Assembly (NCBI GenBank): GCA_965198225.1 | Contig: CBDAOY010000003.1 | Location: forward strand, 64,001 to 128,000 | DNA: 64,000 nucleotides | Direction of reading: 5' to 3' | From: Terriglobia bacterium | GTDB lineage: Bacteria > Acidobacteriota > Terriglobia > 20CM-2-55-15 | Shown: positions 1 through 15,616 of the stretch, in pieces | Numbering within the stretch: position 1 is the stretch's first letter | How the letters are laid out: the number at the start of each line of letters is the position of its first letter | Program-made: the position numbers and the translations under genes | Notes under the pieces: generated by a model | The model's database searches: none | Seen by the model: the letters and a program-made list of their open reading frames with translations, nothing else | Told to the model about the DNA's origin: nothing

Positions 1-150
1 CAACTTCGCGGCGAGTTCGACGGCTTCGGTGCCCGACGAGGCTTCGCCGACTACTTCCATGTCCGGCTCCTCCTCCAGAATCCGTTTCAGTCCCTGCCTC
101 AAGATGGCGTGATCGTCAGCGATTACCAGTTTTATTTTTTCGTTTGTCAT
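1..150 (-). CDS. NarL/LuxR-family response regulator, 5' part only (runs off the window edge)
   Basis: Manual translation from ATG at 150: MTNEKIKLVIADDHAILRQGLKRILEEEPDMEVVGEASSGTEAVELAAKL; close paralogue of 3705..4355; overlaps the kinase stop. Confidence 0.92.
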   Translation of the reverse strand, partial: MTNEKIKLVIADDHAILRQGLKRILEEEPDMEVVGEASSGTEAVELAAKL

Positions 151-1228
151 CTTCTTCACTCGTTCCCCTGGGGATAATCATTTCGACCGTGGTCCCCTGA
201 CCCGACGCCGTACCGACCCGGAAGGATCCGCCGACGTCATTCATCCGCTGCCGGATGGTCCAGAAGCCAGAGCTCATCAATTTCCCACTTGTATCAAAAT
301 AGCGGCGGGGATCGAATCCCCTTCCGTTGTCCTCTACCGCGACCCGAACCTCCGAATCGGAGAAACTCACTGCGATGTCTACCGCAGACGCCCCGGAATG
401 CCGGATTGCATTGCTGATCGCTTCCTGACAACACCGATATAGCGCCATCGTCGGCGACTCGTCAAGCGGGTACGGTTTGCCATGAGTCCTGCAGCGCACA
501 GCCACGTCCGAGGAGCTCGATACCTGTCCGGCCAGTTCCTCCAACGCGGGGACAAAACCCAGCGTGTCGAGGATCCTCGGGTAGAGCGTGTGCGATAGAT
601 CGCGTATCTTCGACAGCAGGCTACCGACTTCGGCGCGCGCCTCTGCCAGTTCTTCGACGGCCTTTGCCGCGCTCCCGTTGCGCTTCATCTCGCTCTCGAG
701 CAGCTTGAGCTTCAGCTTCAACGCGGCAATCGTCTGACCGACGTCGTCGTGCAGCTCGTGAGTGATCCGGCGACGTTCTTCATCCCGTGCACGCAGCGTC
801 TCCCGTACGAGAACTGTTTCCGACACGGTGTTCTTCTGGGCGCGACGGAGGGCCGCGTGCATCGTCCGAGCCGCCGCGATCTGGGGCGCAAGCAGTTCCA
901 GAATCCAGCCGTGATCTTCCGACGCGGGGCTCGTCGAGACAAAGCCGAACTGTTGGTCTCCGTTGCCGAACGACACGGTCTGGGCGGCCGGTGAAGGAGC
1001 GGGCCATTCCCCGAGCTCGAATTCCCGGATCCGGCGTCCCGTGGCATACCATTCCTTCCACTCGGACGCGGATCGGTAGACCACTCGCAGCTCCTTGGCC
1101 GGCGTCAGCTTCCGGACAATCTTCATTGTTTCCGCCACGACCGACCGCATGTCCTTGGCCTGCGTGATGGTTCGTCCGAATCGGCTGATCAGGCTGACGT
1201 CTGATTTGGAGATGTCCATTCCGTTCAA
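116..1228 (-). CDS. Soluble HisKA_3 (NarX/UhpB-type) sensor histidine kinase, copy A (start TTG 1228 or ATG 1219)
   Basis: H-box EERRRITHELHDDVGQ, N-box QEAISNAIRHS, G1 VEDNGRGF, C-terminal GQGTTV; no transmembrane segment visible. Confidence 0.92.
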   Translation of the reverse strand: MNGMDISKSDVSLISRFGRTITQAKDMRSVVAETMKIVRKLTPAKELRVVYRSASEWKEWYATGRRIREFELGEWPAPSPAAQTVSFGNGDQQFGFVSTSPASEDHGWILELLAPQIAAARTMHAALRRAQKNTVSETVLVRETLRARDEERRRITHELHDDVGQTIAALKLKLKLLESEMKRNGSAAKAVEELAEARAEVGSLLSKIRDLSHTLYPRILDTLGFVPALEELAGQVSSSSDVAVRCRTHGKPYPLDESPTMALYRCCQEAISNAIRHSGASAVDIAVSFSDSEVRVAVEDNGRGFDPRRYFDTSGKLMSSGFWTIRQRMNDVGGSFRVGTASGQGTTVEMIIPRGTSEEDDKRKNKTGNR

Positions 1229-2854
1229 TTAGTGCTTCTTTCCTAAAGCGTTCAACAGATTGATGCGTCCTTTGCCCAGGAGTTTTTCAAACTCCGGGTT
1301 CAGTCCGTCGATCGAATCTGCGGTCACTATAATCGTGCGTGCGGCTGTGTTGGCCCTCCCACCCAGGGACACCAGCAGTGCGACCGACCCACTGACGAGC
1401 GGTGCACTGAAAGACGTCCCAGAAGCCCTCGCATAGAGACCTCCCGGAAACGTCGTGACAACCTCGTCCCCGGGTGCGGTTACCGAAATATTTTTTCCGA
1501 AGTTCGAGAAGTCGGCCAGCCGGTCCCCGAGATCGGTCGCCGCGACTGCGATGACGGTCGGGTAGGACGCCGGGTAGACATCGCTGGCATCTTCGGCGTT
1601 GTTTCCGGCGGACGCGACGAGAACAATGCCGTCGGACCAGGCCTTCTGCACCACCCGCCCGAAAGCTTCGGAATCCTGGCCGATCGAGAAACTCATGTTG
1701 ATGACGTCTACTTCCTGATCGATTGCCGCGTACACGGCAGTCATCGCTAGAAACAGCGTGGACTGACCCTGGGAGTCGAATGCGCGGATCGGCACCAGTT
1801 GCGCCTCGGGCGCGACCGCGTGAAGGAGCCCGGCGACCAGCGTGCCGTGTCCCAGGCGGTCGAACATGCCGTTACCGAACAGGGACATGGTCGACTGGTT
1901 TACGTGGAAGAACTGGAGCTGTTCCCAGAACAGGGACATGGTCGACTGGTCCAGGGTGAACTGCTGCATCTCCTCCCAGAACAGGGACATAGTCGACTGG
2001 TCCAGCGTGCCCGCCAGCAATTGCTCCCAGAACAGGGACATGGTCGATTGATCCAGGTTGAGCCGTTGGAGCTCTTCCCAGAACAGGGACATGGTCGACT
2101 GGTCCAGCGTACCCGCACGCAGCTGCTCCCAGAACAGGGACATGGTCGATTGGTCCAGGCCGAGCCTCAGCAATTGCTCCCAGAACAGAGACATCGTCGA
2201 CATGTCGATCGAGCTGTTCTTCAGAGCCCGTACGAGATCTTCAAAGAGAGACATCGTGGACTGATCGATGCCGCCGAACTCCGAGACCGTCCCCCCGCCC
2301 AGCAGGTTAACGCCGGGTTCCAGCCAGGTCCGAATCGCCGGATGGTCCAGATCGACGCCGGTGTCGATGAACGCGATGCGCGTCCCCGCACCCGTCGTAA
2401 TGTCACGTGTGTCGGAGGCGTGAATTACATCCAGCCCAATCTGCTCTGCGTAGTGTTCGGGTACTTCCGTTCCAAAGAAATAGGTGGGCGAACCCTCTCC
2501 GAACAGCGACATCACGCTCTGGAAGAGCGACATCGTGCTCTGGTCCAGATCGATTTCGCCGTCTGAGCCCGTTTTCTCCCGGTCCATCCGAATTATCTTG
2601 TTCTCTTCGGCGTCGATGACTGCCTTTTCCTTCTTCAGCTTTTTCTTGACGCTCTTCTTGTTCTCGACTTCGACCAGGTATATCGGTTCGTCGCCGATCT
2701 GTCCGAGAACCCTGCCCTTGTATCTTTTCAGGATCTTGTCTATCGACTTTCCGTCCTTGAGAGTCACGATCAACGTCCGGGTGCCCGCAGCTACAGCCAC
2801 GCCGGGCAGCAGCCAGCCGAGGAGGACCAGAACGAGGATGATGCGTCGATGCAT
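1229..2854 (-). CDS. Exported S8 (subtilisin-like) serine protease with internal DQSTMSLFW repeat array, copy A
   Basis: Sec-like signal peptide; triad motifs IDTG, GHGT, SGTSFSAP; oxyanion motif SAGN; prodomain-like N-terminus. Confidence 0.93.
   Translation of the reverse strand: MHRRIILVLVLLGWLLPGVAVAAGTRTLIVTLKDGKSIDKILKRYKGRVLGQIGDEPIYLVEVENKKSVKKKLKKEKAVIDAEENKIIRMDREKTGSDGEIDLDQSTMSLFQSVMSLFGEGSPTYFFGTEVPEHYAEQIGLDVIHASDTRDITTGAGTRIAFIDTGVDLDHPAIRTWLEPGVNLLGGGTVSEFGGIDQSTMSLFEDLVRALKNSSIDMSTMSLFWEQLLRLGLDQSTMSLFWEQLRAGTLDQSTMSLFWEELQRLNLDQSTMSLFWEQLLAGTLDQSTMSLFWEEMQQFTLDQSTMSLFWEQLQFFHVNQSTMSLFGNGMFDRLGHGTLVAGLLHAVAPEAQLVPIRAFDSQGQSTLFLAMTAVYAAIDQEVDVINMSFSIGQDSEAFGRVVQKAWSDGIVLVASAGNNAEDASDVYPASYPTVIAVAATDLGDRLADFSNFGKNISVTAPGDEVVTTFPGGLYARASGTSFSAPLVSGSVALLVSLGGRANTAARTIIVTADSIDGLNPEFEKLLGKGRINLLNALGKKH
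1877..2270. repeat. Coding tandem repeat, 51-bp period, 8 units (S8 copy A)
   Basis: GAACAGGGACATGGTCGACTGG-like units start at 1877, 1928, 1979, 2030, 2081, 2132, 2183 and 2243; minus strand encodes (L/I/V)(D/N)(Q/M)STMSLF(W). Confidence 0.97.
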
Positions 2855-2869
2855 CGTTTCTAGGCCTCC

Positions 2870-3292
2870 TTATGCCTGTGCTTGCATGGAATAGGCGAGT
2901 CGCCAGTCGCGAGGATCGTTATGGGACAATCCTCGAACGACAAAACGGCGATCGTCGAGCGAGATCGTCAGATCGAAGTCCCCGTCGGGCACGGTGTGAA
3001 ACATGAACTCTCCGATGGGATTCGTCCGCGTCAACGTCTTCTGCCGGTCCGTTTCGATCACGACCGGGAGGTTGGAGACATTACCCAGGGAGGCGGTTTC
3101 CGGCATCACCTGACCTCCGACATGGAGGCACGGGCTGCCGTCCGACTGCTTGACGAGAAGGTCGAGGATGACCCCCCCGCCTTCATAGATCAGGTGCCGA
3201 TCCTCGGCAGAGGCATCCCGGATCAGGGGCACCTCTTCAAACCAGGAATCAAACAGGAGCGAGCCACGAATTTCGACAACGTCATGGTTCAT
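2870..3292 (-). CDS. Small CHAT-associated cytoplasmic protein, probable beta-sandwich (carboxypeptidase-regulatory-like) fold, copy A
   Basis: ATG at 3292 preceded by GAGGAGG; motifs LLFDSW, RHLIYEGGGVILDL, TRTNPIGEFMF; paralogue of 7280..7696. Confidence 0.8.
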   Translation of the reverse strand: MNHDVVEIRGSLLFDSWFEEVPLIRDASAEDRHLIYEGGGVILDLLVKQSDGSPCLHVGGQVMPETASLGNVSNLPVVIETDRQKTLTRTNPIGEFMFHTVPDGDFDLTISLDDRRFVVRGLSHNDPRDWRLAYSMQAQA

Positions 3293-3430
3293 AATCAGTT
3301 CCTCCTCGTCTTCGGACAAAAGTTCCGAACAAACCAACAAAAGTACGGATTCGCAACGTGGCCCGAGTGTTCTTGTTGGCGCCAGTGCAGCATGCTGGGG
3401 CCGGAGCCTTCGGGCCGTCGTTATAGATCG
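3282..3430 (-). pseudogene. Decayed remnant of the 3' end of a CHAT gene
   Basis: Minus strand CGGGCCACGTTGCGAATCCGTACTTTTG...TTCGGAACTTTTGTCCGAAGACGAGGAGGAACTGATTATGAACCATGA aligns with the CHAT end CGCGCCACGTTTCCGCATCCGTACTTCTG...TTCGGAACTTTCGTCCGAAAACACGGAGGAACTCGTTATGCAACATGA; contains indels. Confidence 0.8.
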
Positions 3431-3704
3431 GTGTCCGTATTCTATGCTAAAGACCTAAGATGTTGGGATAGGAAACCTTCTCAGGCGAGGTGTAGTCAGG
3501 GGGGCTTGAAGAGTGTGATTTCCCCGGTGGCTGGCCCGAATCAAAGAGCCTCGCGGGCCCCTCGGCGGAGGATTGGGGAGAATGAGGTCGGATCGGAACC
3601 CGGCAGACACAGCGGATCAAGACGGATCGAGCGAACGGGTGCGACGCGCCACAACCCGCCGACCGACGCCGCGCGCGACCGACTCTTGGCGGGCGCGACC
3701 CGAC

Positions 3705-4355
3705 TCACACCGTGTTGACCAGTCCTTCGCGGATCGCGTACCGAATCAACTCGCCGATCGTCCGAATGCGAAGCTTGTCCATGATGTGCTGCCGATGCGT
3801 ATGGATCGTTTTGGCGCTCACGAACAGCGCATCGGCGACCTCGCTCGACGACTTGCCCTCGGCAAGGAGGTAAAACACTTCCTTTTCGCGTTTAGTGAGT
3901 GCTTCCAGGCCTCTGCGGCTTTCGTCCTCAACTGACCCGAGATTGGCGAGCGTTTTCGTCACTTTGGAGGAGAAGACGGACCCGCCCGAGTGAATCGTTC
4001 GGATCGCCGTGACGAGTTCGTTGTCGAGCGAATCTTTCAGCAGGTACCCGGCAGCGCCGGCGGTGACGGCGCTGGCGATGACCTGCCTTTCATCGTGGAC
4101 GGTCAGCATCAAGACTTTGGAGCCGCCTTCCGTGGCGATTTCCCGGGTGCTTTCGATCCCGTTCTGCCCGGGCATCGATATGTCCATGATGACGATATCC
4201 GGATGCAGTTCCCCGGCCAGTGCGACCGCCTCGGACCCGGTGGAAGCTTCGCCCACGACTTCCATGTCCTGTTCTTCTTCCAGTATTCGTCTCAGCCCCT
4301 GTCTCAGTATTGCGTGATCATCCGCGATCAACAGTCGTATCTTTCCGTTCGTCAT
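3705..4355 (-). CDS. NarL/LuxR-family response regulator, copy B
   Basis: Receiver motifs IADDH, MDISMP, GYLLK; HTH LTKREKEV...SAKTIHTHRQHIMDKL. Confidence 0.96.
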   Translation of the reverse strand: MTNGKIRLLIADDHAILRQGLRRILEEEQDMEVVGEASTGSEAVALAGELHPDIVIMDISMPGQNGIESTREIATEGGSKVLMLTVHDERQVIASAVTAGAAGYLLKDSLDNELVTAIRTIHSGGSVFSSKVTKTLANLGSVEDESRRGLEALTKREKEVFYLLAEGKSSSEVADALFVSAKTIHTHRQHIMDKLRIRTIGELIRYAIREGLVNTV

Positions 4356-5514
4356 CCTTTTCTCCCGTTGTTAAGGGCACAATCATTTCAACCGTGGTTC
4401 CCTGGCCCGACGCCGTGCCGAGCCGGAAAGATCCGCCGGTGTCGCTCATCCGCTGGCGGATCGTCCAGAATCCCGAGCTCATCAACTTCCCACTGGCATC
4501 GTAGAAACGACGAGGGTCGAACCCGCATCCATTGTCTTCGACCGATACTCTTACCTCCTGTTCCGCAAAATAGACGTGTATGGTCGCTCTGGAGGCGCCG
4601 GAATGCCTGATCGCGTTGCTGAGCGCCTCCTGACAACATCGGTACAATGCGAGGGTCGTGGGTTCATCCAGGGGTCTTGGGGTGCCGCGCACGCTGCAAC
4701 GGGCTCTGATGCCCGAAGGCCCCGACACCTGGTTCGCCAGTTCCTCCAGCGCGGGGACGAAACCCAGAGTGTCGAGGATCCTCGGATACAGCGTGTGAGA
4801 CAGGTTCCGAACCCTTGCCAGCAACTGGCCCACGTTCTCGCGGGCTTCGGCCAGCTCCTCGATCGTTGTGGCCGAAAAACCGTTCTGTGCGATCCGATTC
4901 TCCAACAGCTTGAGCTTCAGCTTGAGTGTCGCGATCATCTGCCCCACGTCATCGTGCAGGTCGTGGGTAATCCGTCGCCGCTCTGCGTCACGAGCGCGCA
5001 GAGTTTCACGAACCAGTTCCATCTCCGAGATTGCATGCTTCTGGGCTCGAAGCAGGGCCGCGCGGAGGGTCAGTACGGCGGAAATCTGCGGAGCCATCAA
5101 CTCCAGGACCCACGTCGTGTCCTCGGATGTCGGGCTGATCGAAACAAAACCGTATTGCTCGCTTCCGGTTTCGAATGCGACGGTCTGTGCGGCCGGCGAC
5201 GGGGACGGCCATTCCGCCTGATCGTAGGAACGGATGCTGCGTCCGAGGGCGTGCCACTCCTTCCAGGCTCCCGCCACCGCGTACACGACGCGCAGCTCGA
5301 CGGCGGGCGTCAGCTTCCGGACGATCTTCAGGGCCTCGGCGACGACCTTTCGGACGTCCTGGGTTTGCGTGATCGTCCGTCCGAACCGCCCGATCAGGCT
5401 GACGTCAGCGGGCGAAATCCCCGTCGTATCCGCAGCCTGTTTCGATTTCCTGCTCTCCCCGCCTGCAGCGAGCGGCTTAGTTATTTTTTTTCTTTTTGCC
5501 TTTGGCTTTGCCAT
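4318..5514 (-). CDS. Soluble HisKA_3 histidine kinase, copy B (start uncertain; nearest ATG at 5514 overlaps the S8 tail)
   Basis: H-box ERRRITHDLHDDVGQ, N-box QEALSNAIRHS, G1 VEDNGCGF; paralogue of 116..1228. Confidence 0.9.
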   Translation of the reverse strand: MAKPKAKRKKITKPLAAGGESRKSKQAADTTGISPADVSLIGRFGRTITQTQDVRKVVAEALKIVRKLTPAVELRVVYAVAGAWKEWHALGRSIRSYDQAEWPSPSPAAQTVAFETGSEQYGFVSISPTSEDTTWVLELMAPQISAVLTLRAALLRAQKHAISEMELVRETLRARDAERRRITHDLHDDVGQMIATLKLKLKLLENRIAQNGFSATTIEELAEARENVGQLLARVRNLSHTLYPRILDTLGFVPALEELANQVSGPSGIRARCSVRGTPRPLDEPTTLALYRCCQEALSNAIRHSGASRATIHVYFAEQEVRVSVEDNGCGFDPRRFYDASGKLMSSGFWTIRQRMSDTGGSFRLGTASGQGTTVEMIVPLTTGEKDDERKDTTVDRG

Positions 5515-7246
5515 TCCCGTTTCCGTTGGAATTCCCGGTACTGCCTGTGTTCGAGCCAGTTGTATCGCTGTCATCCAACGCCTCAGTCAGGTTGATGCGT
5601 CCCCAGCCCAGCTCGTTCCAGAGAGCCGGGTTCAACGATGACGATTCGATGGAGTCCGCCGTGTGTAGGATAGTGTGTCTGGCGGATATATTGTTCTTAC
5701 CCACGGACATGAGCAACGCCAGCCCGGCGCTCACCATCGGCGCACTGAACGATGTGCCGGACGCTCTGGCATACAGGCCTCCAGGGAACGTGGTTGCCAC
5801 GCCAACCCCCGGAGCCAGGACGTCGACGAAACCGTAGTTCGAGAACGACGCGAGGTGGTCTTCGAAATCCGTCGAGGCGACCGCGATCACCTTGTTGTGT
5901 TGCGCCGGATAAATGTCGTTGTTTATGTAGGCGGCGTCGTTTCCGATCGATGCGACCAGTGCGACTCCTTGCGACCATGCATCGTTCAGTGCCCGGTTCA
6001 TGGCTTTGGATTCGGTACCGATCGAAAAACTCATGTTGATGACGTCGACGTCCAGGGCGAGGGCGGCATAGACGGCGGCGACGGCGAAGAACAGCGTCGA
6101 CCGACCCTGGGAGTCGAATGCGCGGATCGGCACCAGTTGGGCTTCGGGCGCGACCGCGTGCAGGAGCCCGGCGACCAGCGTGCCGTGTCCCAGGCGGTCG
6201 AACATGCCGTTACCGAACAGGGACATCGTCGACTGGTTCACGTAGAAGAACTCGAGCTGTTCCCAGAACAGGGACATGGTCGACTGGTCCAGGGTGAACT
6301 GCTGCATCTCTTCCCAGAACAGGGACATGACCGACTGGTCCACGTCGAGCCTCTGCAGGACTTCCCAGAAAAGCGACATGGTCGACTGGTCCAGAGTACC
6401 TGCGAACAGTTGCTCCCAGAACAGGGACATGGTCGATTGATCCAGGTTGAGTCTCTGGAGCTCTTCCCAGAACAGGGACATGGTCGACTGGTCCAGGGCG
6501 CCAGCCGCGAGCCGCTCCCAGAACAGCGACATGACGGACTGATCCAGGCCAGCCCTCAGCAATTGATCCCAGAACAGCGACATCGTCGACATGTCGATCG
6601 AGCTGTTCTTCAGGGCCCGCACGAGATCTTCAAAGAGCGACATCGTAGACTGGTCGATGCTGCCGTACTCCGAGGCCGACCCCCCACCCAGCAGGTTGAC
6701 GCCGGGCTCCAGCCAGGTCCGAATCGCCGGATGGTCCAGATCGACGCCGGTGTCGATGAACGCGATGCGCGTCCCCGCACCCGTCGTAATGTCACGCGTG
6801 TCGGACGCGTGAATCACATCCAGCGCAATCTGCTCGGCGTAGTGTTCAGGCACTTCCGTCCCGAAGAAATCGGTAGGGGATCCTTCTCCGAATAACGACA
6901 TCACGCTCTGGAACAGCGACATCGTGCTCTGATCCAGATCGAGAAACCCACCGGGTATCGATGGAGGCTTGCTCTCCAGCGATACGAGGCCGTTCGGTTC
7001 CACATCGGTGACCCACTTGTCGCCGGCCAGGTCCTCGATCGGGTCTTCGTCCGTCCCGTCGGTAAGAACCAGGAAAACCGGCTCCTGGCCCATCTGTCCG
7101 AGAACCTGGAGATCGTATTTCGCCTTGACCTGGTTGATCTTGTTTGCGCTCTTGAGTGTTACGATCAGCTCCAGCCCGCCGGCTGAGGCTGCGGTCGGGA
7201 GCAGGAGCCCCGCGATCAGTAAGGTGAGAATTATGCATCTTCGCAT
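5477..7246 (-). CDS. Exported S8 serine protease with DQSTMSLFW repeat array, copy B
   Basis: Signal peptide; IDTG, GHGT and SGTSFSAP motifs; Gly/Asn/Lys-rich tail. Confidence 0.93.
   Translation of the reverse strand: MRRCIILTLLIAGLLLPTAASAGGLELIVTLKSANKINQVKAKYDLQVLGQMGQEPVFLVLTDGTDEDPIEDLAGDKWVTDVEPNGLVSLESKPPSIPGGFLDLDQSTMSLFQSVMSLFGEGSPTDFFGTEVPEHYAEQIALDVIHASDTRDITTGAGTRIAFIDTGVDLDHPAIRTWLEPGVNLLGGGSASEYGSIDQSTMSLFEDLVRALKNSSIDMSTMSLFWDQLLRAGLDQSVMSLFWERLAAGALDQSTMSLFWEELQRLNLDQSTMSLFWEQLFAGTLDQSTMSLFWEVLQRLDVDQSVMSLFWEEMQQFTLDQSTMSLFWEQLEFFYVNQSTMSLFGNGMFDRLGHGTLVAGLLHAVAPEAQLVPIRAFDSQGRSTLFFAVAAVYAALALDVDVINMSFSIGTESKAMNRALNDAWSQGVALVASIGNDAAYINNDIYPAQHNKVIAVASTDFEDHLASFSNYGFVDVLAPGVGVATTFPGGLYARASGTSFSAPMVSAGLALLMSVGKNNISARHTILHTADSIESSSLNPALWNELGWGRINLTEALDDSDTTGSNTGSTGNSNGNGNGKAKGKKKKNN
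6215..6659. repeat. Coding tandem repeat, 51-bp period, 9 units (S8 copy B)
   Basis: Units start at 6215, 6266, 6317, 6368, 6419, 6470, 6521, 6572 and 6632. Confidence 0.97.
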
Positions 7247-7279
7247 TTCTTGAGTTCTCCATCCATGGAAAGAAATCGG

Positions 7280-7696
7280 TTAACAGTCAGTCGAACACGC
7301 TAATTGCCAGTTTCGGGGATCGCTCCGCGAGAGCCCTCGCACCACAAACCGCCGACCCTCCAGCAGGATCGTGAGATCGAAGTCCACGTTCGAGACCGAA
7401 TGAAACATGAATTCTCCGATCGGATTCGTCCGCGTCGCCGTCTTCTTCCTTCGAGTCTCGATCACGACCGGGAGGTTTGCGACGTCCCCCATGGAATCCG
7501 TGTCGGGCAGCACCTGGCCCCCGACGTGAAGGCAGGGGTCTCCGTTCGTGCGTTTGACCAGAAGATCGAGGATGACTCCGCCGCCCTCGTAGATCAGATG
7601 CCGGTCCTCGGGGGACGGGTTCCGGACCCGGGGCGTTTCTTCGAACCAGGAATCGAACAAAAGTGAGCCCCGAATTTCGACAACATCATGTTGCAT
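7280..7696 (-). CDS. Small CHAT-associated beta-sandwich protein, copy B
   Basis: ATG at 7696 (MQHDVVEIRGSLLFDSW) with GGAGG RBS; overlaps the CHAT stop by 11 nt. Confidence 0.8.
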   Translation of the reverse strand: MQHDVVEIRGSLLFDSWFEETPRVRNPSPEDRHLIYEGGGVILDLLVKRTNGDPCLHVGGQVLPDTDSMGDVANLPVVIETRRKKTATRTNPIGEFMFHSVSNVDFDLTILLEGRRFVVRGLSRSDPRNWQLACSTDC

Positions 7697-9599
7697 AACG
7701 AGTTCCTCCGTGTTTTCGGACGAAAGTTCCGAATCCGCCCCAGAAGTACGGATGCGGAAACGTGGCGCGGATCGTCGCCGCGGCGCCATGAGTGGCCGCA
7801 GGCGCGTTCGTGCCGTCGTAAAGTTGATAGAACTGTCTGGAAAAAGATTGCGCCGCCTCATCCCGAATTGCCCAGAACGCCGAGACGATCGTGTGCGCAC
7901 CGGACAGGTAGAAAGCTCTCATCAGCCCCTGCCACTCGTCGCCGGCCGAGATCACCCGGCGTGCGGTATGACAGCCGGTGACGACCAGGGTGCCCGCCCG
8001 GAACTGCATGTCCATCAGTTCCCGGCTCGTCAGGCGACCCTCACTGGTTTCCAGCCAGGAAAGCGCCCCCTGGACCGTGTCGATGCCCGCATGTCCTGCG
8101 ACGTGGACCAACTCCCGATATTGCTTCAAGTGGTGGCCGAGCTCATCAGGAGACGGATTGATGAGCACGACCGCGTCATCGAAGTGTGCCGCGGACTGTT
8201 CCACTTCCGTGACGATGTCTTCCTTTTTGTCCGTGGAAAAAGCGACGAACAGCGGCGGTTCCGCTGGTTCCTCCTCCCGGACCGGGGATGCATACAGCGT
8301 CGCGCTCGGACTGTAGCCGATGGAATGATCCTCGCATAAGAACGATGCGCCATCGTGGAGGGCGTGGAATGGAACGCCGTGCAGGAATCCATGAGGCACG
8401 ACGGTGACGTGCTTGCCCACTTTGTCACGAACGGGCTCGACCAGAGCCTGGTAGAGCTGCTGCAGATGTTCCCTCGCCGTCCGCTCCAGGTGATGAATGA
8501 CCTTACCCAGCCGCTCGAACTTGACACTGCAGCTTGCGATGTGCCGCTCGAGATGGCTCGATTCGGACCGGATCGAGGGGCCCACGCCGGGTCGATGGAC
8601 GCACTCGGTGGTTCCTCGATTGACGATGAAGATGTACAGATCCTTTCCGGAGATGAAGTACTCGAGGATGGTTTCGTCGAGGTCCAGACGTTGGGCCAAC
8701 CCCTCGGATAAGACGCCCTCATCGGCGGGAGCCAGCCGCTCCACCAGGACCCGGGAGCGAGCCCGCTCCGAAAGCCGGAATGCATCCGGAACCGAAGTGG
8801 ACGCGGCGGTCGGCATCATTTGCGTGTAAACGTTCTCTCGATCGGTCATGAAGGCCATCTTGAGGTCGTCCGAGCCGATCCGATGCCAGAGGGAATCCAG
8901 CATGGATTCGGCTTTCCCCAGGAATGGAACACTCCGCGTCTCATCGATCTCGGCAAGCGACGCCCCTAATTCGTAGTAGGCGTGGAATTGCATCCATTCC
9001 GATCGACTCTCCTCTGCAAGCTTCGCGGCGGATTCGAAAGAGTCGATGGCGCACGCTCGATCCCCGGTTTTTCGTTGGATTCGCCCGATGACGATGTCGG
9101 CCATAGCTAACCGGTCGGGCAGGGAACGCTCTTCCAGCAGCGCCCGGGCCGCCGTCGCCTCTCGCAACGCCTGAGCCTCCCCCCGCTCGCCCCTGAACAG
9201 GGCCGCTTGCACCTTTGAAACGGCCGTCCAGACGCTGTTGCCTTCAGACTCGAAGCGTTTGACGGCTTCTCCCAGCAGCCGATCGACTTCTTCGTTCTGG
9301 CCCATCCGAAGCGATGCGACCGCTTCGAAGAGCAACGTCTTGCCGACTTCGTAGTTCAGCCCGATCTTCATACCCAGGGCTCGGGCTCGGCGTGCCGATC
9401 GGATCGCTTCCGAAAGATCGCCGATCTCGAGCAGCATCTCGGCCTCATCGAGCCAGCACAGGCTAACGTGACGGTCGTCGGCCTCGCGCTCGAACTCCTG
9501 CTTCAAGTCTGACATGCCGCGCAGAGCTTGACCGCTGTCTCCTCTCAGGTAATCCAGGTAGGTGCGGTTGTACCGGCTCTGCAGCTCGATCGCGTGCAT
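7686..9599 (-). CDS. TPR-CHAT domain protease (caspase/HetF-like), probably 5'-truncated
   Basis: Motifs VPHGFLHGVPFHAL, His VHVAGHA, Cys VTGCHT, IVSAFWAIRD, HPYFWGGF; helical TPR-like N-terminal half; TPR-like coding continues in frame upstream of the ATG to about 9708. Confidence 0.9.
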   Translation of the reverse strand: MHAIELQSRYNRTYLDYLRGDSGQALRGMSDLKQEFEREADDRHVSLCWLDEAEMLLEIGDLSEAIRSARRARALGMKIGLNYEVGKTLLFEAVASLRMGQNEEVDRLLGEAVKRFESEGNSVWTAVSKVQAALFRGERGEAQALREATAARALLEERSLPDRLAMADIVIGRIQRKTGDRACAIDSFESAAKLAEESRSEWMQFHAYYELGASLAEIDETRSVPFLGKAESMLDSLWHRIGSDDLKMAFMTDRENVYTQMMPTAASTSVPDAFRLSERARSRVLVERLAPADEGVLSEGLAQRLDLDETILEYFISGKDLYIFIVNRGTTECVHRPGVGPSIRSESSHLERHIASCSVKFERLGKVIHHLERTAREHLQQLYQALVEPVRDKVGKHVTVVPHGFLHGVPFHALHDGASFLCEDHSIGYSPSATLYASPVREEEPAEPPLFVAFSTDKKEDIVTEVEQSAAHFDDAVVLINPSPDELGHHLKQYRELVHVAGHAGIDTVQGALSWLETSEGRLTSRELMDMQFRAGTLVVTGCHTARRVISAGDEWQGLMRAFYLSGAHTIVSAFWAIRDEAAQSFSRQFYQLYDGTNAPAATHGAAATIRATFPHPYFWGGFGTFVRKHGGTRYAT

Positions 9600-9708
9600 G
9601 CCGAGTTCGGCAGCGAGCTCGAGGGCCCTTTCATAGCGCCCGTCGGCCTGATCGAATCGATGCAGAGCGGTGAGGACGACTCCTGAGTTCAGGGAGGACG
9701 CGAGGAGG

Positions 9709-9765
9709 CCCGGCCGCCACCCACAGGACGCCAGAACCAGAAGAGGGTTGTTCCGTACGACTCAT
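9709..9765 (-). pseudogene. Displaced (inverted) 5' end of the EamA gene
   Basis: ATG 9765 gives MSRTEQPSSGSGVLWVAAG, preceded by a CATAAT -10-like box; joins naturally to ATLWGTD at 9912 on the plus strand. Confidence 0.7.
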
Positions 9766-9844
9766 TGGTAGGGATTATGGCGCATTGGAACTGGGAGGGC
9801 GGGAAAGAAGTAGGCAATGGGCCGTGGTCGGAAGGCAGGCGCGT

Positions 9845-9910
9845 GTAGGTGCGGTCTATGACCGCACATTGTTCGAACCGAAACAACGTGCGCTCACAGA
9901 GCGCATCTAC
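9845..9910. repeat. GTAG-type REP doublet (REPIN-like)
   Basis: GTAGGTGCGGTCTATGACCGCAC ... GTGCGCTCACAGAGCGCATCTAC. Confidence 0.85.
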
Positions 9911-9911
9911 A

Positions 9912-12904: not shown

Positions 12905-13495
12905 ATGGCGCCGGCTGACGAGACGCAACTTATTCAAAAAGCTCAAGATGGGGATGTCGACGCGTTCTGCGCCCTGGTGGCACAGCACCAGCGCTCCATG
13001 TATCTGCTGGCCTACCGGTACGACGCCGAGGACCTGGCCCAGGAGGTTTTCCTGAACGCTCATCGGGCAATCGACCGGTTTCAGGGGAGGAGTTCTTTTC
13101 GCACCTGGCTGTCGCGGATTCTGGTGAATGCATTCCTGAATCACCGGAGGAAGAATGATCCGCTCTCGGAGAAACGACGGTCCGACAGCGATCCGGAAGC
13201 CAGTCCCCCGGCTCCGGGGTTCCAGACCGCGAACGCGTCGGCCCGCACGACCGAGAACCGGCTACTCGTCCAGGAAGTGTTGCGTTTTCTGGACACCGTT
13301 CCGGAAAGGCAGCGACTGATGTTCCTGCTCAAGCACCAGGAGGGTCAGACCTGCGAGGAGATCGCCAAGCTGATGGGCACCTCTGTCGGCACCGTGAAGA
13401 AGACGCTGTTCCGTGTCGTGGGGAAGCTCAGATCCGAGTTCGCTCGGAAGGAAGAACAACCATGCATCGCTGCGAAAGTTTCAGAACAAGCGTAA
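12905..13495 (+). CDS. ECF sigma-70 factor
   Basis: DAEDLAQEVF, FQGRSSFRTWLSRI and EEIAKLMGTSVGTVKKTLFR motifs. Confidence 0.93.
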   Translation: MAPADETQLIQKAQDGDVDAFCALVAQHQRSMYLLAYRYDAEDLAQEVFLNAHRAIDRFQGRSSFRTWLSRILVNAFLNHRRKNDPLSEKRRSDSDPEASPPAPGFQTANASARTTENRLLVQEVLRFLDTVPERQRLMFLLKHQEGQTCEEIAKLMGTSVGTVKKTLFRVVGKLRSEFARKEEQPCIAAKVSEQA

Positions 13496-14202
13496 TCGAG
13501 CCGATCCTGGACGGGCGAGAGCTCAGCGCGGAGGAACGCCTCGAGTTGTCGTCCTGCCAAGACTGCATGGACTTCTACAGAGAGTCGGTCCAAGCCCTGG
13601 AGATTCTGGCACTTGCATCTGAGGAGCCGGATGAGGAGTTCTTTGCCGGGTTCAACGACCGCCTCCGGCGCCGGATTATCAACGATCGCGTCGCGGAAGA
13701 ACGGGGCGTGGGCGGGCGACCCTCCTGGCTCGCACTTTTGAAGCCGCTGGTTCCCGCAGCAAGCCTCCTCGCTGTGATGGTCGCCGTTTACAGTAGCATC
13801 GGGCCGGCAGACGTTCCCTCGCCCGCCGGGAATCTGATTGTCTGGGAGCCTGTTCTGGAGATTGACCCCGGCACAGTGGACTTCCTCGAACGGTCGGAGT
13901 TGTTCCTCCGAACGTTCACGAAACTGAGGGTCACCGACGTGGAAGACCTGGCAGAGGCCCAGGCGATCTCCCACGCCCAGATCCTGGCGATCGAGCCACG
14001 GAAGGAAGCCGTAGTCGATTTCCCGCCCGTGTTGATGGTCTTCGAAGAATACGAGAACGTCTTGCGAGACATCCGTAACCTGCCCGAAGCGGCGGCTGAG
14101 GAAGATGTCGCCGATATCCAGGAAAGGATCGAGCGCAATGGACTCGTTGCCAGGATGAAGGGGTATCAGCCCGAGGTCACGCTGGTGGCGCTCGAACAAT
14201 GA
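13462..14202 (+). CDS. Putative membrane anti-sigma factor (degenerate zinc-finger N-terminus)
   Basis: Overlaps the sigma gene; C...LSSCQDC (ZAS-like, His absent); one transmembrane helix. Confidence 0.78.
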   Translation: MHRCESFRTSVIEPILDGRELSAEERLELSSCQDCMDFYRESVQALEILALASEEPDEEFFAGFNDRLRRRIINDRVAEERGVGGRPSWLALLKPLVPAASLLAVMVAVYSSIGPADVPSPAGNLIVWEPVLEIDPGTVDFLERSELFLRTFTKLRVTDVEDLAEAQAISHAQILAIEPRKEAVVDFPPVLMVFEEYENVLRDIRNLPEAAAEEDVADIQERIERNGLVARMKGYQPEVTLVALEQ

Positions 14203-14263
14203 AGTGAAGAAGGAAGAAAAGCTCCAAATGCCATTACCCGTTGAGTATACGAGGAAAGAATCA

Positions 14264-15616
14264 ATGCAACGTCATCCATTAACATTTCGGATAATCGGAC
14301 TGGTTGTGCTGTCCGTGGTTGCGCTGCCGCCCGCCGAGGCCCAGGTTGTGTCCCCAGCGCTCGTGTCGCAGTTCGCCGCCGAGCTGGATGAGGCGCGGGA
14401 CATCTTCAACGAAGGTCTGCGAATGTTCGAACAGGGACGCTGGGAAGGGGCCGAGCAGAATTTCCGCGAAGTGATGCGTCGTTTCCCGGACAACGCGATC
14501 GCCGACCGTTCATCCTACTATCACATCCGGACCCTGGTCCGGTTGAACCGGGCGACACAGGCGCTGGAAGAGATCGGTGCGTTCCCGACGCGGTTCCCGG
14601 ATTCCCGCTGGCTGAGCGATGTTCACGAGGAGCGGCTCCGTCTGACGAACAATCTCCCCAGGGTGATGGCATTCCAGGCACCCGCGGCTCCGCCGGCCCC
14701 ACCGGCTCCCCCCGCAGCCGAGCTACCTCCGGTTCCACCCGCTCCCCCGGCTCCGCCGCGTCCTTTTGAGTTCGCGGACCTGGAAGAGGTCATCGAACAG
14801 TCCATGGAAGGAATGGAGGAGAGGATGATGGAAGCTCGCGAGGGCTTCCGGGTGGCCGAGAGCGTCCTGCGCGGTATGCAGGGTGTGGTTGCCGGCGGCG
14901 AGGAAGTCGATCCCGAAACCAGCCTGCAGCAGGAAATCCTTCGATCCCTGTTTCGGAACGACCCGGACCGCGCGCTGGAGGTTGCGGCCGATCGCCTGGA
15001 AGCGAACCCGAGCGATCCTGTCGTGATGGCCAACTTCCACATGATTGCGCGGGAGGATTCCGACGCATCGCTCGAGATGCTTGCGAACCTGGCGAAGAAC
15101 TCGCCCGATGACCGTGTCCGCAAGGAAGCCATCTTCTGGATCAGCCGATGGGACGGAGACGAGGATCGCGTCGTCGAGGTGCTGCTCGACATCCTGCCCA
15201 CGATTGACGACGACGAGACTGCATCGTCGGTGGCCTTCTCCCTGAGCCGGGTTGACAGCGAAAGCGCGGTCCAGGCGCTGCTGACGATTGCCAACGACGC
15301 CGTTCGCAACGTCGAACTCCGTAAGAACGCGATCTTCTACATCGGGCGAACAGATGCAGGTAATCAGGTCGACGCTTTGAGACAGATCTACTCGAATGCC
15401 TCCGACAGCGAGGAGATTCGCAAACAGGTGGCTTTTGCTCTCAGCCGGCTGGATGAAGACGACGAAGGCGGAGCCGGCGCCATCGCGCTGATGGGAGAGA
15501 TCGCCAGGAACGATCCCAGCATCGAGGTCAAGAAGCAGGCCGTCTTCTGGCTCGGCCGGATGGACAGTCCCGAAGCTCTGCAGATTCTGGAAGATCTTCT
15601 GCGCGGTCCGCAGTGA
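14264..15616 (+). CDS. Exported TPR (BamD-like) plus HEAT-repeat protein with Pro-rich linker
   Basis: RBS GAGGA, signal peptide ending AEA-Q, FPDSRW TPR motif, repeated RKxA(I/V)F(W/Y). Confidence 0.82.
   Translation: MQRHPLTFRIIGLVVLSVVALPPAEAQVVSPALVSQFAAELDEARDIFNEGLRMFEQGRWEGAEQNFREVMRRFPDNAIADRSSYYHIRTLVRLNRATQALEEIGAFPTRFPDSRWLSDVHEERLRLTNNLPRVMAFQAPAAPPAPPAPPAAELPPVPPAPPAPPRPFEFADLEEVIEQSMEGMEERMMEAREGFRVAESVLRGMQGVVAGGEEVDPETSLQQEILRSLFRNDPDRALEVAADRLEANPSDPVVMANFHMIAREDSDASLEMLANLAKNSPDDRVRKEAIFWISRWDGDEDRVVEVLLDILPTIDDDETASSVAFSLSRVDSESAVQALLTIANDAVRNVELRKNAIFYIGRTDAGNQVDALRQIYSNASDSEEIRKQVAFALSRLDEDDEGGAGAIALMGEIARNDPSIEVKKQAVFWLGRMDSPEALQILEDLLRGPQ

Follow-up and report, generated by a model that had tools for sequence, protein, structure and literature searches.

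How a two-component signalling pair comes to share one gene row with two proteases is the question raised by a stretch of 64,000 nucleotides from a Terriglobia bacterium (G000:C3:64001-128000; hereafter, the window), which belongs to a genome of 6.4 Mb in 9 contigs. At positions 1-9600 of the window, the genes form a row that lies entirely on the minus strand. The row opens with the gene of a CHAT (clan CD) protease at 7686-9599, which is followed by genes for a small beta-sandwich protein (small-1, 7280-7696), an S8 subtilase bearing a peptide repeat (S8-1, 5477-7246), a soluble histidine kinase of the HisKA_3 class (HK-1, 4318-5574) and a NarL/GerE-type response regulator (RR-1, 3705-4355). 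This gene set had been described in an earlier note on the stretch, and Pfam matches, catalytic residues and hydropathy agreed with that description.

The answer favoured here, to which a little better than an even chance was given, is that the locus is a two-component-output variant of a widespread acidobacterial module composed of a sigma factor of the extracytoplasmic function (ECF) type, a tetratricopeptide repeat (TPR)-CHAT protease, a soluble zinc-finger anti-sigma-like protein and an exported S8 subtilase, and that it works as follows. In the ECF form, the anti-sigma-like protein consists of an N-terminal H-x3/4-C-x2-C domain, a conserved linker (hh-F-D-S-F..P..AG-V/A-R) and a C-terminal beta-sandwich. 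In the window form, the linker and the beta-sandwich alone would remain (138 residues), and the sigma factor would be replaced by the HisKA_3 kinase and the NarL-type regulator. The cytoplasmic CHAT protease would dock the beta-sandwich on the helix just before its protease domain, and the linker would then be cut at or near the invariant Arg25. The cut would free or destabilise the sigma-binding part in the ECF form; in the window form, it would alter the action of the small protein on the kinase or the regulator, which is the least supported of these steps. The exported S8 protease most likely cuts itself at its repeats, which would be copies of its own prodomain-junction site. In this genome, the sensing part of the CHAT protease may be impaired after the loss of an N-terminal repeat region.

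The small protein and the ECF-type module

The small protein matched no Pfam or NCBIfam family. Its open reading frame (ORF) as listed spans 7280-7900 (206 residues); because 94 homologues are 79-147 residues long and align from the ATG at 7696, the start was placed at that codon, which gives a cytoplasmic protein of 138 residues whose start overlaps the stop of the CHAT gene by 11 nt. In the alignment of these homologues (A1), R25 never varies and F14, D15, S16, W17 and P22 hardly vary, and the conserved N-terminal segment (LLFDSW..P.VR) is predicted to be disordered. The AlphaFold model is an all-beta sandwich with a predicted local distance difference test score (pLDDT) of 70.4 and a predicted template-modelling score of 0.63, residues 1-19 lying below a pLDDT of 50. 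A named fold family was also sought for this model. Foldseek returned 0 matches against the PDB at E <= 0.001, and VIA-align over 48,161 chains reached a best Z of 6.8 with generic Ig-like sandwiches, a common beta-sandwich for which no family can be named.

A third copy of the domain was found in the same genome, on contig C9, where the A1 profile matches the C-terminal half of the 204-residue protein P0215 (E 1.4e-13). In P0215, zf-HC2 scores 22.9 bits (cut-off 22.2) and a hydrophobic segment is absent; the protein is encoded directly after an ECF sigma gene. When 1.84 billion representatives were searched with a profile, 997 proteins matched at E <= 0.001. The 16 matches at E <= 1e-30 are mostly standalone proteins of ~136-144 residues, the others looking like fragments or a gene-call fusion; beyond this standalone group, the proteins among the best 150 of the 997 are mostly ~200-220 residues long and carry the domain at about residues 85-200. 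Among the matches listed, 87 proteins have 180-300 residues, and H-x3/4-C-x2-C lies within the first 80 residues in 76 of them, with a transmembrane-like segment in 1 of the 87. The 138-residue small protein itself begins at the linker, without the N-terminal H-x3-C-x2-C sigma-binding domain of ZAS/zf-HC2 factors. At the level of sequence, it is a match to the C-terminal domain of soluble zinc-finger anti-sigma factors. The same beta-sandwich domain also follows a receiver-like N-terminus in P0247 and P0297 (~260-290 residues), for which Response_reg scored 25.5 and 23.7 bits (cut-off 30.2).

Gene neighbourhoods were then compared in 27 S8-anchored loci outside the cassette type, of which 7 are all the non-own matches in a sample of the phylum and 20 come from relatives. 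A TPR-CHAT protease is encoded in 23 of the 27 loci (~910-990 residues in most), an anti-sigma-like beta-sandwich protein in 22 and an ECF sigma factor in 19, and the usual order is ECF sigma, TPR-CHAT, anti-sigma-like protein, S8. For loci chosen by S8 alone, CHAT was present in 10 of 12, and a small-domain match lies within 3 kb of the S8 gene for 34 of 69 S8 genes. The anti-sigma-like proteins of the module loci have the zinc motif in 26 of 26 cases and the linker pattern (hh-F-D-S) in 20 of 26, and the printed stretch contains the conserved Arg for 19 of those 20. The linker sits just before the sandwich in these proteins, and the small protein begins with the same linker. Moreover, each beta-sandwich gene lies directly before its own S8 gene, even where such pairs are doubled behind a single CHAT gene (L046 and the window), and a single genome can hold as many as 8 module-type S8 matches. 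As CHAT-S8 loci usually carry an ECF sigma factor and an anti-sigma-like protein, the window was read as the variant with a two-component output. Both the statement in the earlier note that CHAT-S8 loci usually pair with an ECF sigma and an anti-sigma factor and its suggestion that the two-component output might be a variant accord with these counts; a review agrees with the former for group ECF54.

In three orthologous loci, a protein of ~410 residues with a DUF5666 domain is encoded between the CHAT and the anti-sigma-like gene (L039, 16099-17334; L040, 7975-9216; L041, 7081-8322), and in L032 a DUF5666 domain is fused to the C-terminal part of the S8 protein.

The two-component cassette itself was surveyed by scanning one genome per species with the small-protein alignment and by tblastn with the five window proteins. 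The scan gave 9 loci on 8 records (Terriglobia, Solibacteraceae and Sulfopaludibacter metagenome-assembled genomes). All 10 cassettes, which lie on 8 further Terriglobia records, keep the order CHAT, small protein, S8, kinase, regulator, even where the identity of the small protein falls to 46%, and two records have two full cassettes each, in tandem. The five genes, for which a comparison across genomes had been advised, are hence syntenic elsewhere. Of the 33 other genomes that belong to the family of the window's genome, 12 have a strong standalone small-protein match (E < 1e-40), 60 relatives having been searched. In the even phylum sample, 9 of 401 genomes had a small-protein match, G000 included, and the matches outside G000 are weak. 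In addition, L005 (10745-11540), L007 (14317-15349) and L010 (10715-11726) have extra pairs in which a small-protein gene directly precedes a NarL-type regulator gene, without kinase, S8 or CHAT, which hints that the small protein works with the regulator.

The proteases of the cassette

The CHAT protein has 637 residues, and its Pfam CHAT match (120.8 bits against a cut-off of 24, 1e-34) spans residues 377-623. H499, H503 and C543 are shared by all 20 sequences of the alignment, and the putative catalytic histidine was chosen from the HxxxH..GC pattern. The protein had been described as a TPR-CHAT protease. The CHAT part with intact His and Cys stood. No Pfam TPR was found in the window's protein at E <= 0.01. 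Its residues 7-290, which are helical, align at 24-29% identity to relatives carrying TPR_12 and TPR_1, and the strongest TPR part of those relatives is the region that has no counterpart in the window's CHAT.

A structure prediction of CHAT with the small protein, which the earlier note had called for, was carried out. The complex scored 0.69, 0.72 and 0.64, and the best of 3 controls scored 0.00; contact agreement among the runs was at least 84%, and the partner pLDDT was at least 70. Of solved complexes, 58 of 80 attained this mark, as did 2 of 110 mismatched pairs, a calibration that is rough here since our own alignments were used. Binding between CHAT and the small protein is supported by this model. 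On the CHAT side, the interface comprises residues 348-377, 461, 502-506, 541-544 and 574-583, and on the side of the small protein, it comprises residues 13-16 and 21-28 and parts of the sandwich. The sandwich face (33-46, 59-67, 91-97) rests against CHAT helix 348-377. The invariant His503 and Cys543 are flanked by CHAT residues 502-506 and 541-544. Read together, the two residue lists would place the linker with Arg25 at the His503/Cys543 active site. Several clan CD proteases have Arg/Lys specificity. By analogy with them, CHAT may cut the small protein at the arginine.

The second protease, S8-1, has 589 residues, comprising a signal peptide, a fervidolysin-like prodomain and a catalytic domain, and 550 homologues were collected. 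It has a paralogue of 541 residues, also exported, in a second gene set (S8-2, 1229-2854). The Peptidase_S8 matches of the two reach 123 and 129.8 bits against a cut-off of 21.8, and the catalytic Asp, His and Ser and the oxyanion Asn are invariant in a 30-sequence alignment (D164, H336, N418 and S481 in S8-2 numbering). None of the named S8 subfamilies in NCBIfam (mycosin, QhpE, PrtP, PatA/PatG) was reached at its cut-off; the best was mycosin, with 125.3 and 144.8 bits against 278.75, and the PatA/PatG match is weak (51.8-73.3 bits against 421).

Both S8 proteins contain a tandem array between the catalytic Asp and His. TRF gave period-51 arrays at 6215-6548 and 1877-2201, and the motif table together with TRF placed nine [QM]S[TV]MSLF units, mostly 17 residues apart, between Asp165 and His354 of S8-1 (6212-6652); eight such units lie between Asp164 and His336 of S8-2 (~1874-2263). 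Two more motif units are present in both proteins at residues 105-120, where the prodomain meets the catalytic domain (in S8-1, residues 106-120, 6887-6931). Similar arrays were surveyed in the best 120 homologues, in 85 of which the Asp and the His could be located. A 5-mer is repeated at least three times between Asp and His in 59 of the 85; the same 5-mer recurs upstream of the Asp in 43 of these 59 array-bearing homologues and after the His in 0 of the 85. The motif varies by lineage (DQSTMSLF, DWSVMSLF, DQSLIWLF, NQSTVALL, DQSTTTILE, NQSSASYMFE and others), most relatives having 8-residue units, and it differs among the paralogous modules of one genome, G417 having QASAGF, QSSSEF and QSTASF. 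The repeat is, on these alignments, a hallmark of the S8 subfamily.

Since the motif is placed where subtilisin-type prodomains end in the active-site cleft and changes together at both places, its simplest reading, by analogy with those proteases, is that it may be the S8 protein's own cleavage site in tandem, with the junction copy as the autoprocessing site. The AlphaFold model of S8-2 has a pLDDT of 77.7 overall; the prodomain and the catalytic domain are confident, and the junction (94-120) and the array (195-330) appear as low-confidence helices, the array with a pLDDT of ~45-65. No signal was seen for covariation of the S8 motif with the beta-sandwich linker, the linker being nearly constant and the motif variable. 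The boundary of the array units (..F-L-D-Q-S..) loosely resembles the anti-sigma linker (..F-D-S-F..), in the window MSLFWEE and SLLFDSWFEE, which may be chance.

Competing accounts of the locus

Several points weigh against the favoured reading. Of the 20 loci from relatives, 15 were picked knowing that a small-domain match lay nearby, and two anti-sigma-like calls (L035 and L037) were based on position and the zinc motif only. An S8 gene lies within 3 kb of a small-domain match in only 37 of 76 cases among relatives, many contigs being short and the profile narrow. The complex score expresses model confidence, and the printed low-error pairs all involve helix 348-377, none of them joining Arg25 with His503 or Cys543. 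The small protein is tied to the kinase and the regulator only by gene order and by the extra pairs in L005, L007 and L010. Moreover, the S8 protease is exported and the other parts are cytoplasmic, so that this account by itself leaves the position of S8 in the pathway unexplained. The window's CHAT lacks ~170-215 N-terminal residues that are present in 6 of 6 orthologues (844-856 residues), and the second CHAT gene is a remnant of the 3' end at 3288-3446, just upstream of the second small-protein gene, to which orthologue C-termini match by tblastn at 43-51% identity over 37-53 residues (E 1e-6 to 5e-5). Given this remnant, the second gene set descends from a full cassette.

The state of the CHAT genes bears on an account in which the cassette is decaying in this genome. 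The CHAT gene would be an allele whose 5' deletion took away its own promoter and sensing region, the second CHAT would be lost, and the two sets would run without protease input or be served by an orphan TPR-CHAT. We regard this as somewhat unlikely. Homology of the window's CHAT begins at orthologue residues 163-184, which correspond to window positions 9710-9737; a stop lies at 9762-9764, with no in-frame start codon between it and the ATG at 9599. The gap between an EamA gene and the CHAT body is ~1.8 kb in L005, L006 and L009 vs 0.21 kb in the window, about 1.6 kb being missing, and a search for the missing N-terminal part elsewhere in the genome did not find it (best match 29% identity). 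An orphan full-length TPR-CHAT of 945 residues is encoded on contig C5 (L060, 6505-9342), without an ECF sigma, beta-sandwich or S8 neighbour. Lesions also occur in relatives, where the CHAT gene of L005 (4200-6784) is split across two frames and the second CHAT gene of L006 (14213-17517) is broken ~35 codons before its end; these could be errors of the metagenome-assembled genomes or decay. The remnant of the second CHAT fits the same account. However, the CHAT frame is open over 637 codons with its catalytic residues intact, and the deletion may be an artefact or one of two forms. The junction was checked in three runs from three studies, each with at least 93% of the sampled words. Among the contig pieces listed for the three runs, 9710 is where they end or begin, and no piece crosses it; a contig of run X3 aligns to 6767-9710 and continues with 1,796 letters absent from the assembled stretch, and opposite-strand joints link 9710 and 9911 in the three runs. 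The join at 9710 may accordingly be a real deletion, an assembly artefact or one of two forms.

Other accounts turn on the role of the S8 protease. If the S8 protein cut itself at each repeat, the released, lineage-specific peptides (17-mers here, octamers in most relatives) could be re-imported and bind the TPR region or the beta-sandwich, thereby triggering CHAT cleavage as a quorum or diffusion sensor. We consider such a peptide loop unlikely. Its full form, in which S8 is both protease and pheromone precursor, with Opp re-import, readout by TPR-CHAT and a cut of the anti-sigma factor or kinase-gating small protein at Arg, giving many insulated channels per genome, seems equally doubtful. 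The identity of the array and junction motifs and their absence after the His fit self-cleavage sites, and the differing motifs of paralogous modules and the position of each beta-sandwich gene directly before its own S8 gene would suit separate channels. Moreover, SBP_bac_5 (OppA-type) genes occur in 7 of the 27 ECF-type loci, in 4 families with five Pfam-confirmed, and the five genomes checked (3.7-6.9 Mb) hold only 3-7 such genes each; a full Opp permease and ATPase set lies inside L033, and ABC exporters adjoin 4 of the 27 loci. On the other hand, no Opp gene flanks the 10 two-component cassettes or the window, whose contig has 0 of the genome's 7 SBP_bac_5 genes. The beta-sandwich linker is unchanged where the S8 motif varies, the N-terminal repeats are missing from the window's CHAT, and the low-confidence helices modelled for the array neither show nor exclude cleavage. 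The S8 protease could instead be an output, namely a protease secreted for feeding or remodelling and controlled by the sigma factor or the regulator, with the repeats as an internal pro-region or pseudo-substrate loop that delays activation, Opp importing general products and CHAT answering some other cytoplasmic cue. This too appears improbable. The loop that holds the insertion directly precedes the catalytic His helix, a position from which the insertion could fill or deform the cleft, and 5 of 34 module S8 proteins have no array, 4 of those accompanied by CHAT (L032, L035 and two in L037; not L036). A standalone HD_5 (HD-GYP-type) protein of ~190-330 residues is encoded next to S8 in 9 of the 27 loci, mostly after it (L031, L038, L039, L040, L042, L046, L048, L049, L055), which looks like an output set and suggests a link to cyclic-di-GMP turnover; pilin-like clusters adjoin the cassettes of the window (L004), L006, L009 and L011. 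Left unexplained by an output role are the diversification of the motif among paralogous modules, the pairing of each beta-sandwich gene with its own S8 gene, and the recurrence of a dedicated importer at the locus. It is very improbable that the locus is an anti-phage or conflict system in which CHAT would serve as the suicide or effector protease. CHAT proteases do act in type III CRISPR and CBASS-like defence, and a weak Csx29 match was obtained (49.6 bits), but the cut-off of that model (NF041237) is 300 bits. PADLOC gave no match for the CHAT protein, the small protein, the kinase, the ECF sigma, the anti-sigma-like protein or HD_5, returning generic subtilase and helix-turn-helix matches only, and no cas, cyclase or SAVED gene was seen among the ORFs annotated in these loci by Pfam on selected ORFs and by seed matches. 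Up to 8 module-type S8 matches per genome and the export of S8 fit signalling better.

Near the junction, at ~9842-9905, lies a short repeat element with a palindromic core, and its bin is ~50-100 times deeper than the flanks in contigs of the three metagenome runs. The element occurs once in the window at up to 3 mismatches, and a peptide-like string related to it is found in an ORF of L004. Inverted repeats around 9710-9911 were considered as a cause of the opposite-strand joints, and none was found.

Known systems and further features of the locus

Parts of the favoured mechanism have precedents. In the Craspase system, the TPR-CHAT protein Csx29 cleaves Csx30, which holds CASP-sigma/RpoE (PMC10028731). 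There too, a signal-switched TPR-CHAT cuts a partner controlling a sigma factor; the present loci differ in having no Cas7-11 or crRNA, a partner of another family, an exported S8 protease in the module and, in the window, a two-component output. In CalpL-CalpT-CalpS, cyclic-oligoadenylate signalling is followed by cleavage of an anti-sigma factor by a SAVED-Lon protease. The likeness is that a soluble protease cuts a soluble anti-sigma-type protein and the sigma factor is released, and the differences are the other protease family, the nucleotide signal and the lack of a secreted protease.

For the ECF54 group, a genomic context of carboxypeptidase, subtilase and CHAT proteins has been reported and control by proteolysis proposed (PMC8999054). 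ECF54 is described from Actinobacteria, without an anti-sigma factor and without a mechanism (PMC8999054, PMC7826278). ECF54 shares with the present loci the same trio of neighbours, namely CHAT, subtilase and a carboxypeptidase-regulatory-like beta-sandwich protein. In contrast, the modules here are acidobacterial, their beta-sandwich protein has a zinc-finger anti-sigma-like N-terminus, and the window has a kinase and a NarL regulator instead of a sigma factor. The original description of ECF54 is reportedly that of Huang et al. 2015.

Were the peptide loop real, it would recall RRNPP quorum sensing of Firmicutes (Rap/NprR/PlcR/PrgX), where a precursor is exported, imported through Opp and bound by a cytoplasmic TPR receptor, the receptor gene preceding the peptide gene. 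Precursor export, Opp import, a TPR receptor and the order of receptor and peptide genes would be shared, whereas here the putative receptor would be a protease instead of a transcription factor or phosphatase, the precursor would be the protease itself and the hosts are diderm Acidobacteria. Multi-copy peptide precursors are cut by subtilases in the cyanobactin precursor PatE with PatA/PatG and in yeast alpha-factor with Kex2. The S8 array resembles these in its tandem, near-identical peptide units flanked by an S8 recognition motif, and differs from them in that the protease carries the units within its own catalytic domain, between Asp and His, and that the locus has no modifying enzymes.

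Proteases that cut anti-sigma-type partners and the ECF54 context are already known. In full-text literature, with supplements outside its coverage, no description was found of an S8 subfamily with such repeats, of what the small protein is, of the predicted docking of the linker on CHAT or of the CHAT-S8 two-component cassette. An acidobacterial ECF group with this context may be listed already in the supplement of Casas-Pastor et al. 2021.

In soil, Acidobacteria rank with the most abundant bacteria. To our knowledge, almost nothing is known of how they sense one another or their surroundings. The comparison delimits a module of which a genome of this family may hold as many as about eight copies, and it gives an unnamed small protein a probable ancestry, as the C-terminal domain of an anti-sigma factor, together with a concrete proposed cleavage site. 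A protease front end rewired from a sigma factor to a two-component pair would be a natural experiment on the swapping of outputs between signalling modules. If the repeats were released, they would represent a new way of making signalling peptides, and if the peptide circuit were true, it would amount to peptide quorum sensing from protease to protease in diderm bacteria.

The second gene set follows the first on the same strand. It comprises a small protein (small-2, 2870-3292, 77% identity to copy 1), S8-2, a soluble kinase of 370 residues (HK-2, 116-1228, identified by Pfam) and a regulator, RR-2, of which the first 159 nt lie at 1-159 and the remainder to the left of the window (G000:C3:63500-64000; whole gene 63500-64159). 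The last four genes had been described as occurring twice in tandem. The repeat is real, and RR-2 is mostly outside the window. Identity between the paralogues of the two sets is 77% for the small protein, 68% for S8 and 70% for the kinase. An N-terminal hydrophobic segment was found in the two S8 proteins only, with KD19 hydropathy values of 2.2 and 2.7, all others being at 1.39 or below.

The kinases and regulators belong to the NarL/HisKA_3 class. All Pfam matches are above their cut-offs, including HisKA_3 and HATPase_c in HK-1 and Response_reg and GerE in RR-1; the H-box reads HDLHDDVGQ and the receiver residues are DD..D..T..K. No NCBIfam equivalog was reached at cut-off by the kinase or the regulator, and the N-terminal domain of HK-1 (~140 residues) matched nothing in Pfam or NCBIfam. 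In the ESM Atlas, GAF clusters matched this domain at only 0.87-0.89 and unnamed clusters at 0.90-0.93, which serves as a lead only. Since homology to relatives starts near residue 50, the true start of HK-1 is probably later than annotated.

A scan for promoters and terminators was uninformative, with 0 promoter-like sites and 6 terminator-like sites vs 8.2 expected. In the RNA-labelled run X14, a few short contigs cover parts of the stretch, which is too little to infer transcription.

Pilin-like gene clusters adjoin the cassette to the left of the window (L004, 5030-11247) and in L006 (612-2673), L009 (13859-18550) and L011 (6198-11614). PilX-like matches were obtained in L004, L006 and L009, and in L011 prepilin-like N-termini were read by eye. 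These pilin-like genes may be targets of the regulator. On the other side of the cassette, the window has an ECF-sigma-like ORF at 12905-13495, recognised by a seed match and followed by ORFs at 13462-14202 and 14204-15616, and an ECF-like ORF is similarly placed in L009.

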